Source of the DNA: a virus
Taxonomy: Duplodnaviria; Caudoviricetes
IMG/VR virus record: IMGVR_UViG_3300036768_000354
Location: 1 to 60,777 of that record
Reading direction: 5' to 3' (one strand)
DNA length: 60,777 nt
The translations under genes and the position numbers were made by a program. This document shows positions 317 to 60,777 of this stretch, piece after piece. A model generated the notes under the pieces. That model was not told the origin of the DNA. It saw only the letters and a list, made by a program, of their open reading frames with translations, and made no database searches. Each line of letters starts with the position of its first letter. The first letter of the stretch is position 1.

Positions 317-714
317 CAATAACCCTCTCTTTAAATCATTAGTTTCAGATCATAGTTTCCATGGGTATACGGTTATCAATACGTTCTCTCTATATCTCTC
401 TAAAGATGAATATAGCCTCTCTCTATATATGTGTAAGCGCAATACACTCTTCACCGTAGCGCGCGCGTGCGCACGCGAAGGGGAGAGAGGCACACGCGCG
501 CATCTTAATCTAACTTGAGGAGCGCTCATCATGTGAGTCCCCCTATTGAAGCCAATGCATGATACATCACCTCATCTTGAGGTGAGGTAAATCTCAGCAG
601 CTCCTCTTTATATAGCGTGAGTGGTAGTATTAACTTAGATATCCAGTGCACACACCCCACCCACCCCATCTTTATAAGGCTTATTCAGTAGGAGGAGAAG
701 TAGGAGGAGGGTTA

Positions 715-1300
715 CTAGCTACACCAGGGCCAGCTACACTAGGGCCAGCTACACTAGGGTGTAAGTTATATCAGCTGCACCAGCTACACTAGGGCTAGCT
801 ATACCAGTAGGAGGATTGAGAGAGGGGAGTAACATCACCAACAATACCAGCAGGGGGAGGAATACCACCACCACCACTACTAACGCTACCAGCTACACTA
901 GGAGGAGTAACACTAACACTCCTAGGATGAATAACACCACTAGCAACACCAGCTACACTAGGGGGAGGAGTAACACCAACAATACCAGCTACACTAGGAG
1001 TAATACCACTAGCACTAGGAGCAGCAGGAGAGCGGCAGGAGAGCAGCAGGAGCAGGAGGAGGAATAACACCACCACCACTAACAATAGCTACACTAACAA
1101 TACCAGCTACACTAACACTACCACCAGCAACAATACCAACAATACTAGGAGGATTAGGAGTAGTAGCAGGAGCAGGAGTAGCAGGAGCTACACTAACACT
1201 AACAATACCAGCTACACTAACACTAACAATACCAGCTACACTAACACTCCTAGGAGGAATACACTACCACTAGCAACAATACCCACCACTAGGAGCAGTA
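715..1300. repeat. Degenerate tandem repeat tract (CCAGCTACACTA / AACAATA / AGGAGC units), A+C rich
   Basis: Many copies of CCAGCTACACTA(GG/AC) and AACAATACCAGC visible directly. Confidence 0.85.
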
Positions 1301-1619
1301 GGAGCCTCTCCCTGATATAACCTCTCCCTTACGTAATAGGCTATACCTTATAGTGGGGGAGATCACTAGCTATCTTACTCCTATACATACTAGGATATGG
1401 GAGGAGGATGGGGATGGGGTGTACTTAAGTATGTCTCCAAACTTGCTATATTTCAACTGGCGTAGGATGGGTAAGACACTGAAAGTGTTAGGGGGAGGAG
1501 TAGGTTGGATTGGGGGTGGACTGACGCCCACACAAAGCCCACACAAAGCCCACACAAAGCTCTCCCTCTCAAGGAGACAACGCATCATCCTCCGGATAGG
1601 TGTCCTCTGTGTGCGCACA

Positions 1620-3970
<2,351 letters not shown>

Positions 3971-4147
3971 GAGGGGTATTGCGTATGATACTTTACTAGG
4001 TGTTATGCCCTTCAGGCTTGACGGGAGGGTAGGATTGGGTATCTGAGTGCTTTATTATCTCTCTATATATATAGAGAGATCCATATCCCCTGTCCTTGTA
4101 TAGGTTCGGGAACATATCAGGTTTTATTAGGAGGTAGGATCAGGTTG

Positions 4148-9784: not shown

Positions 9785-9869
9785 TCATTCCAGATAAATC
9801 CTATTGTTTATTATACCGGAGAACAGACGTAGTGCTGTTATAACACATAATCAGGTATAATAGTGGAAT

Positions 9870-13000: not shown

Positions 13001-13743
13001 TGTCTTTCGTGATGCCAGAAATAGTTATTCAGAAAGTTCTCACTCATGGTATAACTCAGTTACGAGCTAATAAGACTGAGTTTTATGACTTATTCTGTCA
13101 ATTCACTCAAGATGAACTAAATCAAGACTATGGTCCAAAGTATTTGGATGATGTCTGGAAATGGTTCTCTACAACTAAGATTCCTGTAGTTAAAGCTTGG
13201 TCTTTTAACTCACAAGTTATCCCATGTATCAGTGTACATCTAGCTAATGAGACTGAAGATGAAGGTAAAGCTTCGTTGGGTGATTTAGCAGGTACCTTTG
13301 ATTCTGAGGGTGAAACGGGTACTGGAGTATTTACCGCTATGGTAGATATCGGTATCCACGCTAATAAGGCCGGCGACCACGTTCTTTGGCTTTATTATAT
13401 AGTTGCCTATATTCTCTTTAAGCATAAGCTTATGGCCCATAGACTTGGACTTAAGTTACACACATTTAGCGCTTCTGATTACAATAAAGATGCTAACAAG
13501 ATGACTGAGAATATTTGGACTCGTTGGGTTAGATTTAGATGCACAACTCAGAATTTCTGGGATGCTGATAGATTTCAAGACATTCAAGACCTCAACACTG
13601 ATCCTGCAGTTGGCTTAGAGCCAGCCCATGATGTAGCGGTATCATTGGATGTCGATATAGATGAAGTAGACACTACGTCAAACGATGGCTTAATTGCTAG
13701 TCGTATAGGTGATGTAGATGGCGAAGATGATTTAAACATCTAA
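13000..13743 (+). CDS. Putative tail terminator / completion protein
   Basis: Synteny directly before the sheath module; IPCISVHLANE. Confidence 0.55.
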   Translation: MSFVMPEIVIQKVLTHGITQLRANKTEFYDLFCQFTQDELNQDYGPKYLDDVWKWFSTTKIPVVKAWSFNSQVIPCISVHLANETEDEGKASLGDLAGTFDSEGETGTGVFTAMVDIGIHANKAGDHVLWLYYIVAYILFKHKLMAHRLGLKLHTFSASDYNKDANKMTENIWTRWVRFRCTTQNFWDADRFQDIQDLNTDPAVGLEPAHDVAVSLDVDIDEVDTTSNDGLIASRIGDVDGEDDLNI

Positions 13744-27068: not shown

Positions 27069-27092
27069 CTAAGATCGCTATATAATTAGCCT

Positions 27093-47603: not shown

Positions 47604-48725
47604 ATGAAATTTAGAATAGAGAATAATATATTACAAGAAGGCTCTAGTTATAGTAGCGATTTAGAGGATTTTCCTAGAGCGATTAGTTTTGTGACTAAGA
47701 AAAATTATACTTATCAAAACGGAAACTTCAATGACCAGGCAACTACTCCTTCAGCTAGCTTCCCTGGTAGTAGTGCATTCAATGGAGGGGTACTCCTACC
47801 TGACGGTAGAGTTTTCTGTGTGCCGTATAACCAAACTTCAGCCACCATTTATAACCCAGTAACTGATACAACAGCCACTATTTCAGGATTCCCTGGTGTA
47901 ATCTCATTTATTGGAGGGGTACTCCTACCTGACGGTAGAGTTTTCTGTGTCCCATATAATTCTACAACAGCTAGGATTTACAATCCAGTAACCGATACTC
48001 TAACTACTCCCTCTGGGACTTATCCTGGTGGCACTGCATTCATTGGGGGAGTTCTTCTCGCTGATGGTAGGGTATTCTGTGTCCCGTATAACTCCACCAC
48101 AGCTAGGATTTACGACCCTGTAACTGATACAGTAACTACCCCTTCAGGAACCTATCCTGGTACTGGAGCATTCGCTGGAGGAATACTCTTGCCTGACGGC
48201 AGAGTTTTCTGCGTACCGAATAGCTCTACAACAGCTAGAATCTATGATCCGGTAACCAATACAGTAACTACTCCTTCTGGTACTTATCCTGGTGGTACTG
48301 GAGCATTCTATGGCGGGGTACTCCTACCTGACGGTAGAGTTTTCTGTGTACCGCATAACTCTACAACAGCTAGAATCTACAATCCAGTAACTGATACTCT
48401 AACTACCCCCTCTGGGACTTATCCTGGTAGCTTCGCATTTATTGGAGGAGTACTTCTACCTGATGGTAGGGTTTTCTGTGTGCCCCTCAACTCCACCACA
48501 GTTAGAATCTACAACCCAGTAACTGATACTTTAACTACCCTCTCTGCAGCCCTCAGTGGTAGTGGAGCATTCGCTGGAGGAGTACTTCTTCCTGACGGTA
48601 GGGTATTCTGTGTACCTTATAGCTCCACTACAACTAGGATTTTAGCTGGTAATTTTAGTCAAAACAATAATCCATACCAACTTACTAAACAGCTATTACT
48701 ATCAACGTTCCTAAATAAATTTTAA
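47604..48725 (+). CDS. Seven-repeat beta-propeller-like protein A (putative receptor-binding protein)
   Basis: 7 copies of ~44-aa F-x-GGVLLPDGRVFCVP-x-x-STTARIY-x-PVT; ends FLNKF. Confidence 0.8.
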   Translation: MKFRIENNILQEGSSYSSDLEDFPRAISFVTKKNYTYQNGNFNDQATTPSASFPGSSAFNGGVLLPDGRVFCVPYNQTSATIYNPVTDTTATISGFPGVISFIGGVLLPDGRVFCVPYNSTTARIYNPVTDTLTTPSGTYPGGTAFIGGVLLADGRVFCVPYNSTTARIYDPVTDTVTTPSGTYPGTGAFAGGILLPDGRVFCVPNSSTTARIYDPVTNTVTTPSGTYPGGTGAFYGGVLLPDGRVFCVPHNSTTARIYNPVTDTLTTPSGTYPGSFAFIGGVLLPDGRVFCVPLNSTTVRIYNPVTDTLTTLSAALSGSGAFAGGVLLPDGRVFCVPYSSTTTRILAGNFSQNNNPYQLTKQLLLSTFLNKF

Positions 48726-48748
48726 TAACTACTAAAAAGAGGTAACGT

Positions 48749-48955
48749 ATGAAAATTATTAAAAACGCAAATAATATGTTAGAGATTCTAGATGAAAATA
48801 ATAAGGTAATTTCTAGAATGTTAAAAACAGAAGAGAATCAGGAGTTGGTTGACTCTCTATTGGCTTCAAGCGAATATCAAGTTACTAACTTTAATATAGA
48901 AGTTATTATGCCAGAACAGCCGGTTGACGGCGATTGGCAAAACAGCTTGATTTAA
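48749..48955 (+). CDS. Hypothetical protein, 68 aa
   Basis: GAGGT RBS. Confidence 0.7.
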   Translation: MKIIKNANNMLEILDENNKVISRMLKTEENQELVDSLLASSEYQVTNFNIEVIMPEQPVDGDWQNSLI

Positions 48956-48977
48956 TAAATTTTATGAAAGAGGCATT

Positions 48978-50102
48978 ATGTTTAAACTAAATGGTAATTT
49001 ATTTGAAAATTTAAGTAGCAATACTGGAAGTTTAAAATCTGATGTTGTAAACATATTGCGAACTATTACTACAAGAAATAGAAATAGTACTGGACAATAT
49101 TTTAATTCACAAGCTGCAACTGTAACTACCCCCTCTGCAACTTTCCCTGGTAGTAATGCATTTGTTGGAGGAGTACTTCTACCTGATGGTAGAGTTTTCT
49201 GTGTGCCTTACAACAGCACTACAGCTAGGATATATGATCCAGTAACCAATACAGTAACTACTCCTATAGGAACTTATCCTGGTGGTGGAGCATTCAGTGG
49301 AGGGGTACTTCTATCTGATGGTAGAGTTTTCTGTGTGCCGAATAACTACGGATCAACTAGAATCTACAATCCAGCAAATGATTCTCTAGCCAGTCCTTCA
49401 CCTGTTTTCCCTGGTGGTGGAGCATTCAATGGAGGCGTACTCCTACCTGACGGTAGAGTTTTCTGTGTACCTACCAACCAAACTTCAGCCATCATTTATA
49501 ACGCAGTAAATGATACCACAACCACTGTTTCAGGATTCCCTGGTAGTGGAGCATTTCAAGGTGGAGTGCTTCTTCCTGATGGTAGGGTTTTCTGTGTCCC
49601 GTATAATTCTACAACAGCTAGGATTTATAACCCAGTAACCAATACAGTAACCACTCCTTCTGGTACTTATCCTGGTGGTGGAGCATTCATTGGAGGAGTT
49701 CTTTTAGCTGATGGTAGGGTTTTTTGTGTACCTGTTAACTCCACAACAGCTAGAATCTATGATCCAGTAACTGATACAGTAACCACTCCTTCAGGTACTT
49801 ATCCTGGTGCTGGAGCATTAGCTGGAGGAGTACTTTTGCCTGATGGCAGGGTGTTATGTGTGCCTCACACCACCACTACAACTAAAGTCTATGATCCAGT
49901 AACTGATACTCTAACCACTATTTCAGGGTTTCCTGGTGGTGCCGCATTCATTGGAGGAGTACTTCTTCCTGATGGAAGGATATTCTGTGTGCCGCATAGT
50001 TCCACAACAACTAGGATTGTAAGCGGTGCTTTTTCTAGCTACGCTAATCCGTATCAAATACCAACTCAATTAGCCTTATCTGGTTTTTTGAATAAGTTTT
50101 AA
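48978..50102 (+). CDS. Seven-repeat beta-propeller-like protein B
   Basis: Same 7 repeats; ends FLNKF. Confidence 0.8.
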   Translation: MFKLNGNLFENLSSNTGSLKSDVVNILRTITTRNRNSTGQYFNSQAATVTTPSATFPGSNAFVGGVLLPDGRVFCVPYNSTTARIYDPVTNTVTTPIGTYPGGGAFSGGVLLSDGRVFCVPNNYGSTRIYNPANDSLASPSPVFPGGGAFNGGVLLPDGRVFCVPTNQTSAIIYNAVNDTTTTVSGFPGSGAFQGGVLLPDGRVFCVPYNSTTARIYNPVTNTVTTPSGTYPGGGAFIGGVLLADGRVFCVPVNSTTARIYDPVTDTVTTPSGTYPGAGALAGGVLLPDGRVLCVPHTTTTTKVYDPVTDTLTTISGFPGGAAFIGGVLLPDGRIFCVPHSSTTTRIVSGAFSSYANPYQIPTQLALSGFLNKF

Positions 50103-50119
50103 TTAAGAGGCAAACACTT

Positions 50120-51652
50120 ATGAGTACATTTGCAAAAAATAAATCTATAATCAGGAAAACATTAGCAGAAGAAAGGTTGCCTAACGTAGTATCTCGTACT
50201 ATAACTTTTATGCACCAAGCTTCTGGTTTTGTCAGTTTTATAGACTTAAATAGTCTAACAATTCCCACAGACGCCGCCTCGGAAGGATTTTCTAATCCTG
50301 GTGCCAGTGTTTTTCCTTATTTAAGGTTATATAGACAAAACATCTCGGTAGAAAGTTCTTATAAGGGTAAACTACAAGATTACTCGGATTATAGAGTTGT
50401 TAATAACGAAAAAATTCAACTTATAAATATCACCACTGAGCCGGGTGAGATTTTCGTAATTAAGTTGGTATTACCAAACAACATCGATGTAAAAAATTTA
50501 CAGGAAGAGTTAAGTAATCCCTTGAGTATTCTTAACAACGCTAAGTACGGAGTCGCAACTGTACCTTCTAAAGTATCAGATATGTTATCTCCGGTTATTA
50601 CTGATATTTTGACTCACGTTAGTGAACAAAATACAAAAAGGTTTGAGAGTGCTGGTAACGTAGATGTTACGACTACTCCTTCAGGGAGTTATCCTGGTAG
50701 TAGTGCATTTTTTGGGGGAGTCCTTCTATCTGATGGTAGGGTTTTCTGTGTACCGAATAGCTCTACAACAGCTAGAATCTATGATCCGGTAACCAATACA
50801 GTAACCACTCCTTCTGGTACTTACCCTGGTAGTACTGCATTTGTTGGAGGAGTGCTTCTTCCTGATGGTAGGGTTTTCTGTGTACCGAATAGCTCTACAA
50901 CAGCTAGGATTTATAACCCAGTAACTGATACTTTAACTACCCCCTCTGCAACTTTCCCTGGTGGTGGAGCATTTCAAGGTGGAATATTATTACATGATGG
51001 TAGAGTATTCTGTGTGCCTGGTAACTCCACAACGGCTAGCATCTATGATCCAGTAACTGATACTCTAACCACTCCTTCAGGTACTTATCCTGGTAGCGCT
51101 GCATTTTATGGCGGAGTGCTTCTTCCTGATGGTAAGGTGTTTTGTGTGCCTAGTAACTCCACAACGGCTAGCATCTATGATCCAGTAACCAATACAGTAA
51201 CTACTGTTTCAGGGTTTCCTGGTAGTACTGCATTTGTTGGAGGAGTGCTTCTTCCTGATGGTAGGGTTTTCTGTGTACCGCATAACTCTACAACAGCTAG
51301 AATCTACAATCCAATAACCAATACAGTAACTACTCCTTCTGGTACTTACCCTGGTAGTACTGCATTTGTTGGAGGAGTCCTTCTTCCTGATGGAAGGGTG
51401 TTTTGTGTCCCATATAATTCCACAACAGCTAGGATTTACGACCCTGTAACTGATACCGTAACTACTCCTTTAGGGACCTATCCTGGTAGCGGATCATTTT
51501 TTGGAGGAGTACTTCTATCTGATGGTAGGGGTTTTTGTGTGCCTGGTAACTCCACATCAGCTAGAATCTTGGCCGGGAATTTTATTAAAAATATAAACGA
51601 CTTCCAATTTCCAAAAGAAATAATGTTATCTCCATTTTTAAATAAATTTTAA
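50120..51652 (+). CDS. Seven-repeat beta-propeller-like protein C with an extra N-terminal domain
   Basis: ~185-aa N-terminal domain plus 7 repeats; ends FLNKF. Confidence 0.8.
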   Translation: MSTFAKNKSIIRKTLAEERLPNVVSRTITFMHQASGFVSFIDLNSLTIPTDAASEGFSNPGASVFPYLRLYRQNISVESSYKGKLQDYSDYRVVNNEKIQLINITTEPGEIFVIKLVLPNNIDVKNLQEELSNPLSILNNAKYGVATVPSKVSDMLSPVITDILTHVSEQNTKRFESAGNVDVTTTPSGSYPGSSAFFGGVLLSDGRVFCVPNSSTTARIYDPVTNTVTTPSGTYPGSTAFVGGVLLPDGRVFCVPNSSTTARIYNPVTDTLTTPSATFPGGGAFQGGILLHDGRVFCVPGNSTTASIYDPVTDTLTTPSGTYPGSAAFYGGVLLPDGKVFCVPSNSTTASIYDPVTNTVTTVSGFPGSTAFVGGVLLPDGRVFCVPHNSTTARIYNPITNTVTTPSGTYPGSTAFVGGVLLPDGRVFCVPYNSTTARIYDPVTDTVTTPLGTYPGSGSFFGGVLLSDGRGFCVPGNSTSARILAGNFIKNINDFQFPKEIMLSPFLNKF

Positions 51653-55722: not shown

Positions 55723-55915
55723 CTGCTACCTCAGAATGATCTGTGGTCTGCTCTAAAACTTGTCCTGTTTTAATATTTGTGACACGAATTTTAGCAGAGT
55801 TATTAACTTTATCTACAAACAATAACTCTAACTTATATTCGTCGTTGATGATAAAAGGTCGCTTTTTACCAAGCCACCAATACAATGAATCTTTTAACTT
55901 ATTGGAATAATCCAT
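55709..55915 (-). CDS. Hypothetical protein, 68 aa
   Basis: AGGAG RBS. Confidence 0.75.
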   Translation of the reverse strand: MDYSNKLKDSLYWWLGKKRPFIINDEYKLELLFVDKVNNSAKIRVTNIKTGQVLEQTTDHSEVADGQD

Positions 55916-57454: not shown

Positions 57455-57612
57455 AAACCTAAACAACAAGTATTAGACTCAATGGCCAATACGATATTCA
57501 ACTTACAATAGCTGATATAGTTGCAGCTGGGTTTTCTAAGTTAATAGAGAACATGTACTTTGATACATAGTTTGAACAAGGTTTCGACTTAAAGTTCTAG
57601 TATAATGGTTAT

Positions 57613-59061
57613 ATGCCATTAAGTAAAAAAGATCTATCAGACATAGCTAAAGAATTTGCCACTACTAAGAGTGACCAGGCAGATGATAAAGCTGTTATTC
57701 CAAACATAGAAGAACAAGTTGCTAAAAAGCAAGAACAGGTCGATAGAACTTATATTCCGTACAATAATGCACATATAGAGCGAATTACACCGTACGAGCA
57801 AGAGCATAGATGGCTTAATGGTACTACTTACACAACTATAACTCAATCTCAGATCGAGACAGTTAATCAGAGCACAGGTAAGGCAACATACTTCTTTCCT
57901 GATTCTTGGACTAAAAGTAATGCACAGCTTCAACCTAACGGAAACGGTAATCCAAAATCCACAAGTACTAATAGCGAAGATTATGTAATAAACAGTACGA
58001 TCCAATTGCGCGGAATTAAAGCAATGGTTAATACTATTAGAAATGGTATATCTGGTGCAGGAGGCAACGCTACAACTCAACAACCACTACACGATATTCC
58101 AGCAGGCACAGTATCTAATCTACAAATAGATGTAGATAGTGTTTTAAATTTTAATGCAAATGATTTGATATATATTAATAAAGGTTCTAGTAGCGGTATT
58201 TATATAATTAATTCTGTTGGAGCATCTCACTTATTTATAAGTAGTGTAATACCATCACAGATAGGTTTCACTGGACAAGGATCAACAGTAAAGAATAATG
58301 TTGCAGGTTTTACTCTCTCTGAGAGACAAAATTTAACATCATCTACTTATCAAGAGCTATTAACTAATCTCTCTAATGAGATCATATCTTCTGTATTGTT
58401 GTGGGAAGCAGCGCTGAATAATCAATTAGCTCAATTAAATATGAATATTGATGCAGCAAATCAGATATCTACTGCAAAAAGTAATGTAAATACAGCAAAA
58501 ACAGCAATAGATACTTGGCAAGCATTATCAAATACAGGCGCTTCTGGCAAGTTTGTAGATACAAGTTTAAATAATTTAGCTACTGCTTACAATACTAGAA
58601 GTTCTTTTATTGCTACTAGAGCATCGCAAATAACATCTGCATTAGGGAGTGTATCTCAAGATGCTCAGGGTAATTATTCAGGTGCAGGTTTATATCTTCA
58701 AAGATATAAGTGTCTTAATTTTTTAATCAATACATCAAATGGACCTTTATATCAAATATTTGGATTAAATATGGCTAAAGGTACCTTTCAATCCAAAGTG
58801 GCCAATGCTGCAGATAAGTTAGCAACTTATAGTGACTTAGTTCGCTATGGCGCTTTCACTGCAGATCCTGTATTAAATACAGTGAAGATTGATTCTGTTT
58901 CGCAATTCTCTAACGGTGACTCTATCCTTTTGACAGGTAATAATTTACCAGCTATAGAGTGCACAATATCTAGTATATCTGGGTCAACAATAACACTAAA
59001 CATAAATATACCTAAAGAGTACACTAAGTCAGCGAAAAGTGGAATTATTAAAGCGATATAG
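57613..59061 (+). CDS. Hypothetical, probably virion-associated protein, 482 aa
   Basis: S/T/N-rich with helical segments; leaderless-type promoter. Confidence 0.7.
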   Translation: MPLSKKDLSDIAKEFATTKSDQADDKAVIPNIEEQVAKKQEQVDRTYIPYNNAHIERITPYEQEHRWLNGTTYTTITQSQIETVNQSTGKATYFFPDSWTKSNAQLQPNGNGNPKSTSTNSEDYVINSTIQLRGIKAMVNTIRNGISGAGGNATTQQPLHDIPAGTVSNLQIDVDSVLNFNANDLIYINKGSSSGIYIINSVGASHLFISSVIPSQIGFTGQGSTVKNNVAGFTLSERQNLTSSTYQELLTNLSNEIISSVLLWEAALNNQLAQLNMNIDAANQISTAKSNVNTAKTAIDTWQALSNTGASGKFVDTSLNNLATAYNTRSSFIATRASQITSALGSVSQDAQGNYSGAGLYLQRYKCLNFLINTSNGPLYQIFGLNMAKGTFQSKVANAADKLATYSDLVRYGAFTADPVLNTVKIDSVSQFSNGDSILLTGNNLPAIECTISSISGSTITLNINIPKEYTKSAKSGIIKAI

Positions 59062-59076
59062 TATATAATCTAAGTT

Positions 59077-59625
59077 ATGAGACCAGTGAATAAAGCAGGA
59101 ATAAATCTTATTAAGTCATTTGAAGGGTTGTCTCTTAAACCCTACTTAGATGCTGTTAATATCCCAACTATTGGGTACGGCACTATTCAATACCCAAATG
59201 GTCAAAAAGTTTCAATGAAAGACCCCGCTATTACTGAAGCGCAAGCTATTGAATTCTTAGAGCATGAAGTAAACATGAAGGCCTCTGTAGTAGAAGATAT
59301 GGTTAAGGTTCCGCTTAACGACAATGAGTACGCAGCATTAGTTTCTTTTTCTTATAATGTAGGCTCAAACGCACTACAGACATCAACTTTACTTAAGCTA
59401 TTAAACTCTGGAGCTGACAAGGTAGCTGTAGCAGATCAATTCTTAAGATGGAATAAAGCTGGCGGTAAAGAACTTAAAGGTTTAACAAGAAGAAGAGAAG
59501 CAGAGCGTTCTCTTTTCTTGCAACCGGTGGCGCAATATAGTGGCGACGAACTTCTTTCTTCTGAACCTTCAGAGGAGGATATTGATGTAAAGCTTAAGAA
59601 GCTGGAAGACGATATCATGAAGTAG
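59077..59625 (+). CDS. GH24 phage lysozyme / endolysin
   Basis: IKSFEG-x6-LD-x4-PTIGYG; ALVSFSYNVG; GLTRRREAERSLF. Confidence 0.93.
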   Translation: MRPVNKAGINLIKSFEGLSLKPYLDAVNIPTIGYGTIQYPNGQKVSMKDPAITEAQAIEFLEHEVNMKASVVEDMVKVPLNDNEYAALVSFSYNVGSNALQTSTLLKLLNSGADKVAVADQFLRWNKAGGKELKGLTRRREAERSLFLQPVAQYSGDELLSSEPSEEDIDVKLKKLEDDIMK

Positions 59626-59697
59626 GTATCGAAACCGTCTTGAGTACACTCTTAGTTAAATCTATCGGCTTCCAACAACCAATTAACTAGGGGAAGT

Positions 59698-59868
59698 ATA
59701 GGAAATTCATTTATTGAGATTAAAAGCAGAGATTAAAGTATTAGCTCACCAAATTAAATCATTAAAATCATTCCGCAAACCATATAAAATGGTTATATAC
59801 CTGGACTTGCTGATAGCCAGCATGAATTCAAATATAAGCATATTGCTTACCGCTATTGCAGCTCATAA
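59698..59868 (+). pseudogene. Frameshifted remnant of a small phage gene
   Basis: RLKAEIKVLAHQIKSLKSFRKPY continues after a frameshift as NGYIPGLADSQHEFKYKHIAY; GGGGAAG RBS followed by ATA. Confidence 0.4.
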
Positions 59869-59912
59869 TTGCGATCATGAAGTCAGAAACTTAAAGCTAC
59901 TGTAAGTGTGTG

Positions 59913-59918
59913 TATAAT
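59913..59918 (+). promoter_or_regulatory. -10 box upstream of the structured RNA and tRNA
   Basis: TATAAT 6 nt before the first paired base of the predicted RNA. Confidence 0.6.
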
Positions 59919-59924
59919 AGATTT

Positions 59925-60095
59925 GCACGGCCGCGTAAACGGATGGTAACATTACCTAAAGATTGTAAAGAGCTTTACGGTGTTCCTTCTTTAGCAGAAG
60001 CCTACATGCTGATACTTAATGTTGTTAGGGGTTATCGGGCAAGAGATTCGACGGAATATCTGCCATCTATACGGTAACAATAATTCAGCCCGTGC
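59925..60095 (+). ncRNA. Unclassified structured RNA (~171 nt)
   Basis: GCACGG(59925-30)/CCGTGC(60090-95); CGTA/TACG; GGATGGTA(59941-48)/TGCCATCT(60061-68); internal hairpins 59962-81, 59986-60000 and 60009-38. Confidence 0.55.
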
Positions 60096-60116
60096 GCCTT
60101 TATTTTCGGAGGTTAT

Positions 60117-60194
60117 GTACCTATAGCTCAGCTGGTTAGAGTTGGAATCTCTAAAATTCTGTAAGCGTGGGTTTAAGTCCCACTAGGTGCTCCA
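60117..60194 (+). tRNA. tRNA with CUA anticodon (amber suppressor type)
   Basis: Acceptor GTACCTA/TAGGTGC; D arm GCTC/GAGT; anticodon stem GGAAT/ATTCT with loop CT-CTA-AA; T arm GTGGG-TTTAAGT-CCCAC; discriminator T; encoded CCA. Confidence 0.85.
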
Positions 60195-60198
60195 TATT

Positions 60199-60528
60199 AT
60201 GAACTGGATCGGTCAAGATTTCTCTTCTAAAATGAAGCTAAATTTACTTCCTGGTGTTCATATACAACCAGGCTACTGGCAAGTTCAAATCGATTACATA
60301 TCAGAGTCAAGCAATACAACTATATACCATAACTCTACATTTATGGCGGCGGGTCATAGACAGCAAGACTACGACGTAGTTATCGGTATAGATGTTCGCA
60401 ATATACACCTCACGATGCATAGACACAGTCCTTTTCCCGGCTCTTCTAGCAATATCATCAATAAAAACCTATCAGTTCACGCACTTATCTTATTAAACTT
60501 TGCTCATCGCTTACTTAAGATAAAGTAA
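60199..60528 (+). CDS. Hypothetical protein, 109 aa (start revised to ATG 60199)
   Basis: ORF begins 4 nt after the tRNA CCA; no RBS. Confidence 0.45.
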   Translation: MNWIGQDFSSKMKLNLLPGVHIQPGYWQVQIDYISESSNTTIYHNSTFMAAGHRQQDYDVVIGIDVRNIHLTMHRHSPFPGSSSNIINKNLSVHALILLNFAHRLLKIK

Positions 60529-60777
60529 CAACCAACCAACTAATCAACTTAAGGAGCAGTTAGTAACTAGCGATTAGTGACTAGCCAACTTAAAAAGTAA
60601 TAACTAACCAACCAATCAACCAAGCAACCAACCAACCAATCAACCAACTGACTTAAGGAGTAATAGCAATAGCAATAGCAATAGCAATAGCAATAGCAAT
60701 AGCAATAGCAATAGCAATAGCAATAGCAATAGCAATTAACCAACTAACTTAAGGAGTAACTAGTTACTAGTTACTAG
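60529..60777. repeat. Low-complexity tract: AACC/AATC runs, (AGCAAT)x12 at 60665-60736, three ACTTAAGGAG
   Basis: Directly visible. Confidence 0.9.

Follow-up and report, generated by a model that had tools for sequence, protein, structure and literature searches.

Why a phage that reads the standard genetic code should carry a tRNA for a stop codon is the question raised by the right-hand end of the window analyzed here, which is the whole of IMG/VR record IMGVR_UViG_3300036768_000354, a linear sequence of 60,777 nt with a CheckV completeness of about 36%. A tRNA with the anticodon CUA (60151-60153) is encoded on the plus strand at 60117..60194 of this window. The gene content is that of a myovirus (tail sheath, baseplate proteins, primase, a DnaB-like helicase, a second helicase and an endolysin), and the window belongs to a clade of standard-code myoviruses of roughly 150-175 kb. 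Uncultured relatives are plentiful (36 loci; loci are cited below by L numbers); one of them, L034, has a helicase 93% identical to that of the window, and another relative, G001, is a genome of 174,974 bases rated 100% complete. Among cultured phages, Myxococcus phage Mx1 has the most similar helicase (27.5% identity), and no tRNA is present in the region of Mx1 that was read. Taking the comparisons among these sequences together, we consider it on balance probable that the tRNA is a genuine amber suppressor and the RNA member of an endolysin-side cassette, that read-through of UAG licenses the synthesis of the two proteins of this cassette, named here ORF A and the hydrolase, and that the protein half of the cassette has been lost in the window.

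The CUA tRNA and its anticodon loop

ARAGORN found one tRNA only in the window, that at 60117-60194 (+) with anticodon CTA, and a search of the whole window on both strands with Rfam model RF00005 gave a full-length match (model positions 1-71) of 49.8 bits, against a gathering score of 29, with an E value of 1.1e-07; the gene was further placed in an alignment of 12 related sequences. The description given in an initial annotation of this DNA was borne out in its details, as the molecule folds into a cloverleaf with an encoded CCA (60192-60194), U73 (T at 60191) and the T loop TTTAAGT, and the several G-U pairs mentioned there are three (2:71, 10:25 and 27:43). The anticodon loop, C-U-C-U-A-A-A, has the seven nucleotides, the U33 and the purine at position 37 of an amber suppressor, and the same loop is found in all 12 tRNAs of the clade and in 46 of 59 distinct CUA tRNAs. 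Within the 12-member family compensatory changes were detected at 14 of the 20 stem pairs, and the discriminator base varies (U, A or G). Among 38 related loci, a CUA tRNA is present downstream of the helicase in 16, and the relatives keeping it have helicases that are only 63-93% identical. Because the loop is invariant while the stem pairs covary, the tRNA is, on this comparative evidence, under selection to read UAG, and CUA is not a private mutation of the window. The anticodon also agrees with sequencing data, given that a contig of run X1 spans 59733-60417 with no difference from the window, as does a contig of run X2 over 59654-60055; the best-matching DNA run may be the sample from which the window was assembled. 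Run X1 also contains a minor contig (depth 3.8, nine differences) over 60102-60190 that carries an orthologous tRNA with 60151 C>A and 60153 A>G, the anticodon of which would read ATG; its downstream flank is L034-like, and sequencing error is possible at such a depth.

The label tRNA-Pyl attached to the gene by ARAGORN is set by the anticodon alone and was rejected. The hallmarks of tRNA-Pyl are a short D loop without G18G19, a 3-nt variable loop and an elongated anticodon stem, but in the window tRNA the D loop is canonical and contains GG, the anticodon stem measures 5 bp and the variable region 6 nt, so that by its predicted structure it is an ordinary class I tRNA. No isotype stood out, as similarity to 22 other phage tRNAs ranged from 0.60 to 0.73 across many isotypes with no clear nearest one. 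Exact-pattern scans of viral contigs, combining the anticodon arm and the T arm, returned 32 loci, none of them an orthologue, with unrelated tRNAs or no tRNA at all.

A cassette of ORF A, a PTH2-like hydrolase and the tRNA

The endolysin gene of the relatives is followed, in this order, by ORF A (about 97-130 aa), the gene of a 99-aa protein, a leader RNA (in some lineages), tRNA(CUA) and a 109-aa gene. ORF A, the 99-aa protein and the tRNA are all present in 14 loci, and none of them is found in eight endolysin-bearing loci (of these, one is too short for a verdict); the window alone has the tRNA together with mere remnants of the proteins. The cassette has been lost as a whole in at least seven lineages, and, across the loci compared, its parts occur or are missing as a set. 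In some lineages a unit made of a promoter-like box and the leader RNA separates the proteins, upstream of it, from the tRNA, downstream of it, so a single contiguous block does not by itself account for this pattern.

The 99-aa protein is, from its predicted structure, a PTH2-fold protein, hence a predicted peptidyl-tRNA-hydrolase-like protein (referred to as the hydrolase): its model has a pLDDT of 92.8, the top Foldseek matches are all Pth2 (2zv3, 1wn2, 1xty and 1q7s, TM 0.76-0.80), and in a PDB profile search its profile matches a peptidyl-tRNA hydrolase of solved structure (E 0.008). ORF A was modeled with confidence as a helical bundle (pLDDT 90.9); nothing in the PDB matched it at E <= 0.001, and it belongs to no Pfam or PHROG family. 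The hydrolase gene overlaps ORF A in the relatives, and in a sister group (L041, L043, L049 and L051) the two are fused into one polypeptide, which argues for a functional tie between them.

Linkage of the hydrolase to CUA tRNAs in other phages

A scan of viral contigs (up to 405 kb in length) with the hydrolase alignment recovered 80 loci, representing 60 distinct genes. A CUA tRNA was located within 2 kb of the PTH2-like gene in 67 of the 80 loci (52 of the 60 distinct genes), and the hydrolase gene itself contains an in-frame TAG in 36 loci (24 distinct genes). This TAG is found at codons 3-9, directly after the ATG, in 22 distinct genes and in mid-gene in five; re-initiation is no explanation for the latter five, and a hydrolase gene with an in-frame UAG would not be makeable without the tRNA. 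Four of the eight distinct hydrolase genes with no nearby tRNA also carry TAG, and for these the tRNA may lie elsewhere or have been missed. No tRNA was found around the PTH2-like genes of phages PBECO4 and XacN1 in those loci. In a 223-kb phage contig (L160, 2001-3662) the PTH2-like gene and the CUA tRNA are adjoined by a tmRNA gene.

Thus, other large standard-code phages with a tRNA(CUA)-PTH2 pair have, in many cases, an in-frame UAG near the start of the hydrolase gene. The window's clade differs from these in that its hydrolase has no in-frame TAG (10 aligned genes), in having the additional ORF A, and in offering another candidate gate, namely an endolysin UAG followed by a Pro-Pro-stop tail and a hairpin.

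The endolysin stop codon, its tail and a hairpin

The endolysin gene (59077..59625, +), of the lysozyme type (phrog_7, E 5e-57), ends 492 nt upstream of the tRNA with a TAG at 59623-59625, which is the proposed read-through site. Among endolysins with the C-terminus ...EDDIMK(K), the stop codon is TAG in all seven of the cassette-bearing lineages first examined (the window, L034, L036, L039, L040, L063 and L137), and it is TAA (six) or TGA (two) in relatives devoid of the cassette. The endolysin TAG of the window is kept in three of four orthologues, as against none of nine for three other TAG stops of the window; the TAG of a 482-aa gene is kept in two of two, but this codon coincides in part with TAGTATAAT, a promoter-like motif of the endolysin gene. 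A metagenome scan seeded with ORF A, the source of the additional tail versions given below, yielded 80 loci, and the endolysin end was recovered in 23, among which the distinct ends were TAG with Pro-Pro (nine), TAG without Pro-Pro (two), TGA (three) and TAA (five). In a broader set of 80 endolysin relatives, mostly unrelated lysozymes, TAG occurs with a CUA tRNA in four and without it in two, and other stops occur with the tRNA in five and without it in 69.

Translation past the TAG would add a short in-frame tail, which in the window is V-S-K-P-S followed by TGA (59626..59643, +). The tails of the relatives have 5 to 15 codons (lengths of 5, 6 or 15 were found) and mostly end in Pro-Pro-stop, as do eight tail versions (IREPP, MLKPP, IADKPP, IAKKPP, NDKPP, IVKPP, NANSQLASAYADRPP and INKDRLTHVYADKPP), the proline codons of which vary at third positions (CCA CCC, CCG CCT, CCT CCG, CCT CCT and CCA CCT). 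In the window the tail ends in Pro-Ser (CCG TCT), not Pro-Pro.

A predicted hairpin (59644..59699, +) follows, with its 5' arm beginning 1-5 nt after the tail stop codon and its 3' arm lying over the Shine-Dalgarno sequence (GGAG) of the, in the window former, ORF A. It is the minimum-energy fold in all five sequences folded (the window and four relatives), at -8.1 to -11.3 kcal/mol and z -1.4 to -3.35, and an RNAalifold consensus of eight sequences has 11 pairs, five of them with compensatory changes.

Proposed mechanism

Termination after a C-terminal Pro-Pro is slow, and the footprint of a ribosome extends roughly a dozen bases 3' of the A site. The endolysin UAG is at least 18 bases upstream of the hairpin. 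We postulate that tRNA(CUA), charged by a host synthetase, would read the terminal UAG of the endolysin, and that a ribosome past this codon would translate the short tail as far as the Pro-Pro-stop and terminate slowly there; while held at the tail stop codon it would melt the hairpin that hides the ribosome-binding site of ORF A. A ribosome stopping at the endolysin UAG, at the distance given above, would leave the hairpin closed. Because a ribosome stalled at Pro-Pro would open the hairpin and one stopped at UAG would not, ORF A and the overlapping hydrolase gene would be translated only during active suppression, by the same logic as the direct amber gate of other clades, built differently. 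The partial or conditional read-through that had been among the initial suggestions for this tRNA thus gains support in a specific form, from the endolysin TAG kept in cassette-bearing relatives together with the conserved short tail.

Several observations weigh against this reading. A kinship-aware trait test, based on trees of the endolysin alone and of the endolysin plus the C-terminal half of the helicase, had only three independent pairs, with a non-significant sign test and poorly resolved trees, and the correlation of TAG with the cassette could rest on no more than one to three events. The endolysins of L041, L043, L049 and L051, which have the fused ORF A-PTH2 gene and other endolysin types, end in TAA or TGA beside the cassette, from which it follows that endolysin read-through cannot be the general role, and L305 has the cassette together with an endolysin ending in TGA. 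In L040 the TAG is not followed by a Pro-Pro tail, and in L318 three further codons follow Pro-Pro. The z score of the hairpin is only -1.4 in the window, and its RNAalifold consensus energy is weak (-2.3 kcal/mol). The 99-aa protein matches Pfam PTH2 at E 0.009-0.1 and 13-17 bits, under the curated cut-off of 23. The window tRNA is 96% identical to its L034 orthologue and its flanks are about 78% identical, a difference that can reflect continuing selection as readily as recent orphaning. Finally, the rest of the genome, beyond the roughly 36% covered by the window, could hold a second copy of the hydrolase or recoded genes.

A broader proposal, which would apply across these phages, is that synthesis of a PTH2-type hydrolase is confined to times at which the phage's own tRNA(CUA) is active, as a lock opened by its key, whether the gate is a direct UAG or read-through of the endolysin stop. 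We put this forward tentatively, as a doubtful but testable idea drawn from sequence comparison; being located in the lysis cassette, such a circuit could time a late activity directed at translation. If it is true, the window would represent a naturally occurring loss of the lock with the key retained, and the possible roles of the hydrolase would include the removal of peptidyl-tRNA, the arrest of host translation, or the shielding of ribosomes at UAG from host toxins that cut mRNA in an empty A site.

Relation to known systems

ErmCL-ermC, SecM-secA and TnaC are examples of translation attenuation by ribosome arrest. The clade would resemble them in its putative stall-prone coding end followed by a putative hairpin over the next ribosome-binding site. 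Its "leader", unlike those of the arrest attenuators, would be reached only by UAG read-through, and the input would be suppressor activity instead of a drug, secretion or a metabolite. The A1 protein of phage Q-beta is a C-terminally extended product of stop-codon read-through, and our proposal likewise has a fraction of the ribosomes passing a stop codon to give a C-terminally extended form; in Q-beta, however, the host carries out near-cognate decoding and the extension is long and functional, whereas the clade would use its own cognate suppressor to add a tail of 5 to 15 residues.

Among phages, a close parallel is XacN1, a standard-code jumbo phage with CUA tRNAs, for which in silico read-through of its 18 amber stops is reported to have given no target (PMC5852040). 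XacN1 is like the window's clade in having the standard code, CUA tRNA genes and a PTH2-like gene (ORF364); its tRNAs are in the terminal repeats, far from the PTH2-like gene, with no tRNA within 2 kb of ORF364. In the window's clade, by contrast, the tRNA, the hydrolase and the candidate UAG target are adjacent, which provides a testable target. The TAG-recoded crAss-like and Lak phages (code 15) have a CUA tRNA near their lysis genes, for which tRNA-dependent expression was proposed (10.1101/2021.08.26.457843). In-frame TAG occurs there in many structural and lysis genes, whereas the conserved genes of the window's clade have none; compared with the recoded phages, read-through here would concern no more than a single stop codon or, in other clades, a single small gene.

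A literature search that covered few subscription journals returned nothing on a link between tRNA and PTH2 or on endolysin read-through by a phage suppressor. CUA tRNAs of standard-code phages are reported without a known target in XacN1 (PMC5852040) and are elsewhere read as a recoding step (10.1101/2021.08.26.457843). The comparative evidence points to concrete and very local targets, which are the neighboring PTH2-like gene and, in the window's clade, the endolysin stop codon.

Loss of the protein half in the window

In the window ORF A is a remnant (59699..59849, +) recognized by alignment with L034, L036 and L040: the ATG start of the relatives is replaced by a TAG (59699-59701), the frame shifts by 1 nt near 59776-59786, and a deletion junction marks the end of the remnant. 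The hydrolase is represented by its last ~18 codons (59850..59905, +, with TAA at 59903-59905), as identified by blastn with L034 and by alignment. About 374 nt of L034 (14325-14698) are missing from the window, the deletion joining the middle of ORF A to the end of the hydrolase gene. No PTH2-like match was found in the window by tblastn, and there is no PTH2-fold gene within 2 kb of the tRNA as there is in 14 related loci. To judge from these lesions, the window is a degraded member of the cassette family, not an intact one. The ORF A remnants still translate to recognizable protein, and the damage is recent, since a minor variant in run X1 keeps the ATG start of ORF A.

The tRNA has changed less, with three differences from L034 in 78 nt, all of them C-to-T (positions 2, 25 and 56). 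The last of these places U at canonical position 56 of the T loop (60174). The T-loop C56 pairs with G19, and the window tRNA lacks this conserved C. Among the 59 distinct CUA tRNAs U56 is unique to the window, the other 58 reading TTC (36 by script parse and the remainder by eye). The Rfam score of 49.8 bits compares with 59.6 for the closest orthologue and is the lowest of five genomes (57-62 in the others). As three derived changes hit three parts, namely the proteins, the tail and the tRNA, the sequence suggests that the system is being lost on the window's lineage. With its protein half destroyed, the tRNA is, as far as the window goes, an orphan deprived of its known local purpose; it probably still folds and may still suppress.

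Alternative explanations

The tRNA could instead act mainly in trans, on host termination at UAG, where general read-through would disturb host proteins or keep ribosomes from halting, with the PTH2-like hydrolase clearing the peptidyl-tRNA and stalled ribosomes that result and the gating matching its dose, in which case the window tRNA would keep its main job; we regard this as unlikely. Retention of the cloverleaf, the anticodon loop, the promoter-like box and the leader after loss of the partners is what such a role would predict, and both the TAG-recoded Lak phages and the standard-code XacN1 (two CUA tRNAs) carry PTH2-like genes unlinked to their tRNAs. The tmRNA gene beside the hydrolase and the tRNA in L160 would also fit, and a second stop within five codons of the TAG in 32 of 73 TAG-ending genes would make read-through cheap for the phage. 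However, no adaptation of the phage to its own suppressor was detected: TAG ends 73 of 542 long open reading frames (ORFs) (13.5%) in genomes with the cassette, against 11 of 67 (16.4%) in relatives without it, and a back-up stop is no nearer to TAG (44%) than to TAA (42%). The loss of the whole cassette together in at least seven lineages also speaks against a role in trans, and U56 and the Pro-Ser tail of the window point to relaxed constraint.

These two changes, together with the destroyed partner genes and the lowest Rfam score of the five genomes, would suit a tRNA that is a dead relic, transcribed or not but no longer functional, and only this one of the 59 distinct CUA tRNAs has U at the constant C56. 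We nevertheless find a dead relic quite improbable, given that all four stems pair (with G-U at three places), that the anticodon loop and CCA are intact, and that only three nucleotides differ from L034; pseudogenization is recent, so an intact tRNA is either functional or simply not yet decayed. The decaying tRNA suggested by the initial annotation is supported in part, by the destroyed partners and the solitary U56, but the cloverleaf and the anticodon loop are intact.

It is very improbable that the phage is at the start of genome-wide TAG recoding (code 15) or keeps a relic of it. The low G+C content (38%), the position of the cassette beside a lysis gene, like the "code change module" described in 10.1101/2021.08.26.457843, and the model published there, which views in this way the suppressor tRNAs of standard-code phages akin to recoded gut phages, would agree with it, but the tRNA is kept over the deep divergence noted above (63-93% helicase identity) with no conserved gene recoded, TAG is not rare as a stop (13.5%), no RF2 or synthetase gene was detected in five records, one of them rated complete, and the apparent gain in open frames under a TAG-recoded code comes from a TAG-rich low-complexity region at 0.7-4 kb.

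Genetic code of the clade

The clade, as far as its gene sequences tell, uses the standard code. In the window 37 code-11 genes were delimited at 9.8-60.5 kb and none needs an in-frame TAG, in line with the earlier remark that long genes here have none and that several end in TAG (the stops are TAA in 27, TAG in six and TGA in four). No conserved gene with an in-frame TAG as a sense codon was found in five genomes (548 kb), and the suggestion of an early or relic recoding stage is not supported. Coding density, which had been proposed as a check, does not favor code 15 either: under code 11, 88.9% of G001 is covered by ORFs of 100 aa or longer, and less is gained when TAG is recoded than when TGA or TAA is. 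Pairs of ORFs split by one in-frame stop show no enrichment of TAG, with 8 against 8 and 5 for the other two stops in the window and 32 against 46 and 57 in G001. Stop-free alignments of relatives that span an in-frame stop numbered 8 for TAG, 30 for TGA and 17 for TAA in the five genomes, and all of them are of the short, off-frame kind.

A phage RF2 gene is often present in stop-codon-recoded phages. The search for release factors and aminoacyl-tRNA synthetases, likewise proposed earlier, came out negative, with no RF-1/RF-2 domain and no GlnRS/GluRS-type or LysRS-type synthetase in the five records. Under a TAG-recoded code the interval at 0.7-4 kb of the window opens in all six frames; its source is the TAG-rich low-complexity region, which contains an array of TTCCT(A/G)TAGG repeats, every copy of which contains TAG, and the coding-density test would be misled by such a stretch. 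For annotation, this means that a single CUA tRNA together with a rise in code-15 open frames from TAG-rich repeats should not trigger recoded gene calling.

Two intervals of the window that might have been genes with in-frame TAG were discarded. In 55893-55189 (-), the stretch conserved upstream of the ATG has stops at varying places in relatives and looks non-coding, and for 9681-9295 (-) the homologue in G001 starts just 3' of the TAGs. The interval 55723-55893 (-), upstream of the gene at 55722-55186, is intergenic and at least 60% conserved when translated across relatives, and is likely to be a conserved non-coding element between divergent genes. An in-frame TAA lies in an open frame of 744-816 codons in four relatives (G001 79743 (-), G002 34295 (+), G003 95073 (+) and G004 5310 (-)); it is conserved in all four, with flanks 70-85% identical, in a region that the window does not have, and could mark two abutting genes or a programmed event.

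Leader RNA and neighboring genes

Upstream of the tRNA lies a structured leader RNA of about 185 nt (59924..60108, +), predicted by RNAalifold from six lineages with 39 pairs, 15 of them compensatory. Its closing helix joins 59924-59930 to 60090-60096, and a U-rich run (60099-60108) follows just 5' of the tRNA, ending 9-20 nt before it across lineages. No Rfam match to the leader was found at E <= 5. A -10-like box, TATAAT (59913..59918, +), recognized by conservation only, is located about 6 nt before the leader and occurs at the same place in the window, L034, L036, L039, L063, L137 and L064; a two-hexamer sigma-70 scan did not report a promoter at 59913, and the search for a canonical terminator was also negative. 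No RNA run was listed for the region, and in two wastewater runs (X3 and X4, labeled RNA-Seq and flagged "probably DNA") contigs were recovered only over 59934-60095 of the leader, with one difference and with ends within the U-rich run.

A conserved 109-aa gene (60199..60528, +), identified by its homologues in relatives, begins 5 nt after the tRNA, and its likely Shine-Dalgarno sequence, AGGTG (60185-60189), lies inside the 3' acceptor strand of the tRNA. No Pfam or PHROG match was found for this gene. Homologues follow the tRNA in L034, L036, L039, L040 and L063, and stand directly after the endolysin or the leader in L037 and L064. The covariance model of the leader also matches L064 (2793-3010) at 131.6 bits with no tRNA after it, the leader there directly preceding the 109-aa gene. 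Because of this arrangement in L064, the leader is best assigned to the 109-aa gene, and the tRNA would be embedded in that transcript.

Further tRNA-like genes were noted in other loci. A second one lies between the leader and the CUA tRNA in L063 (3967-4134), L039 (about 13155-13325) and L137 (reverse strand); that of L063 scores 45.3 bits with Rfam. Its anticodon loop reads C-U-U-G-G (a Pro-like anticodon) and is then interrupted by an insertion of about 97 nt, which is less than the length of a typical group I intron. A related tRNA-like gene in L036 has an insertion in the D region. In L045, L046 and L047 (12165-12250; similar in L229 and L371) the endolysin stop is directly followed by a tRNA-like gene, scored at 46.8 bits by Rfam in G005, with an anticodon loop of about 14 nt; L045-L047 lack ORF A and the hydrolase.

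Other features of the window

The array mentioned above comprises about 45 same-strand copies of TTCCT(A/G)TAGG at 1700-3940, spaced 30-60 nt apart within a wider low-complexity zone (650-4000); 64 matches on both strands were counted against 5.5 expected, and on the flanks are repeats with a purine/pyrimidine skew and a (CTA)23 run. In 219 loci of relatives no array of this kind was found. The ends of the contig are also repeats (60530-60777 and 51-140), with (AACC)12, (AATAGC)12.5 and, at the left end, a 21-nt repeat, and they include three copies of CTTAAGGAG with stop codons after each. Three neighboring genes at 47604-51652 each consist of six to seven tandem repeats of 132 nt (44 aa).

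The motif (T)AGTATAAT, or a close variant of it, is present at 57593-57612, 59057-59076, 9850-9869 and 27073-27092. It ends 6-8 nt 5' of the start codons of several genes with no Shine-Dalgarno sequence in between, and this placement suggests that these genes have leaderless or near-leaderless mRNAs.

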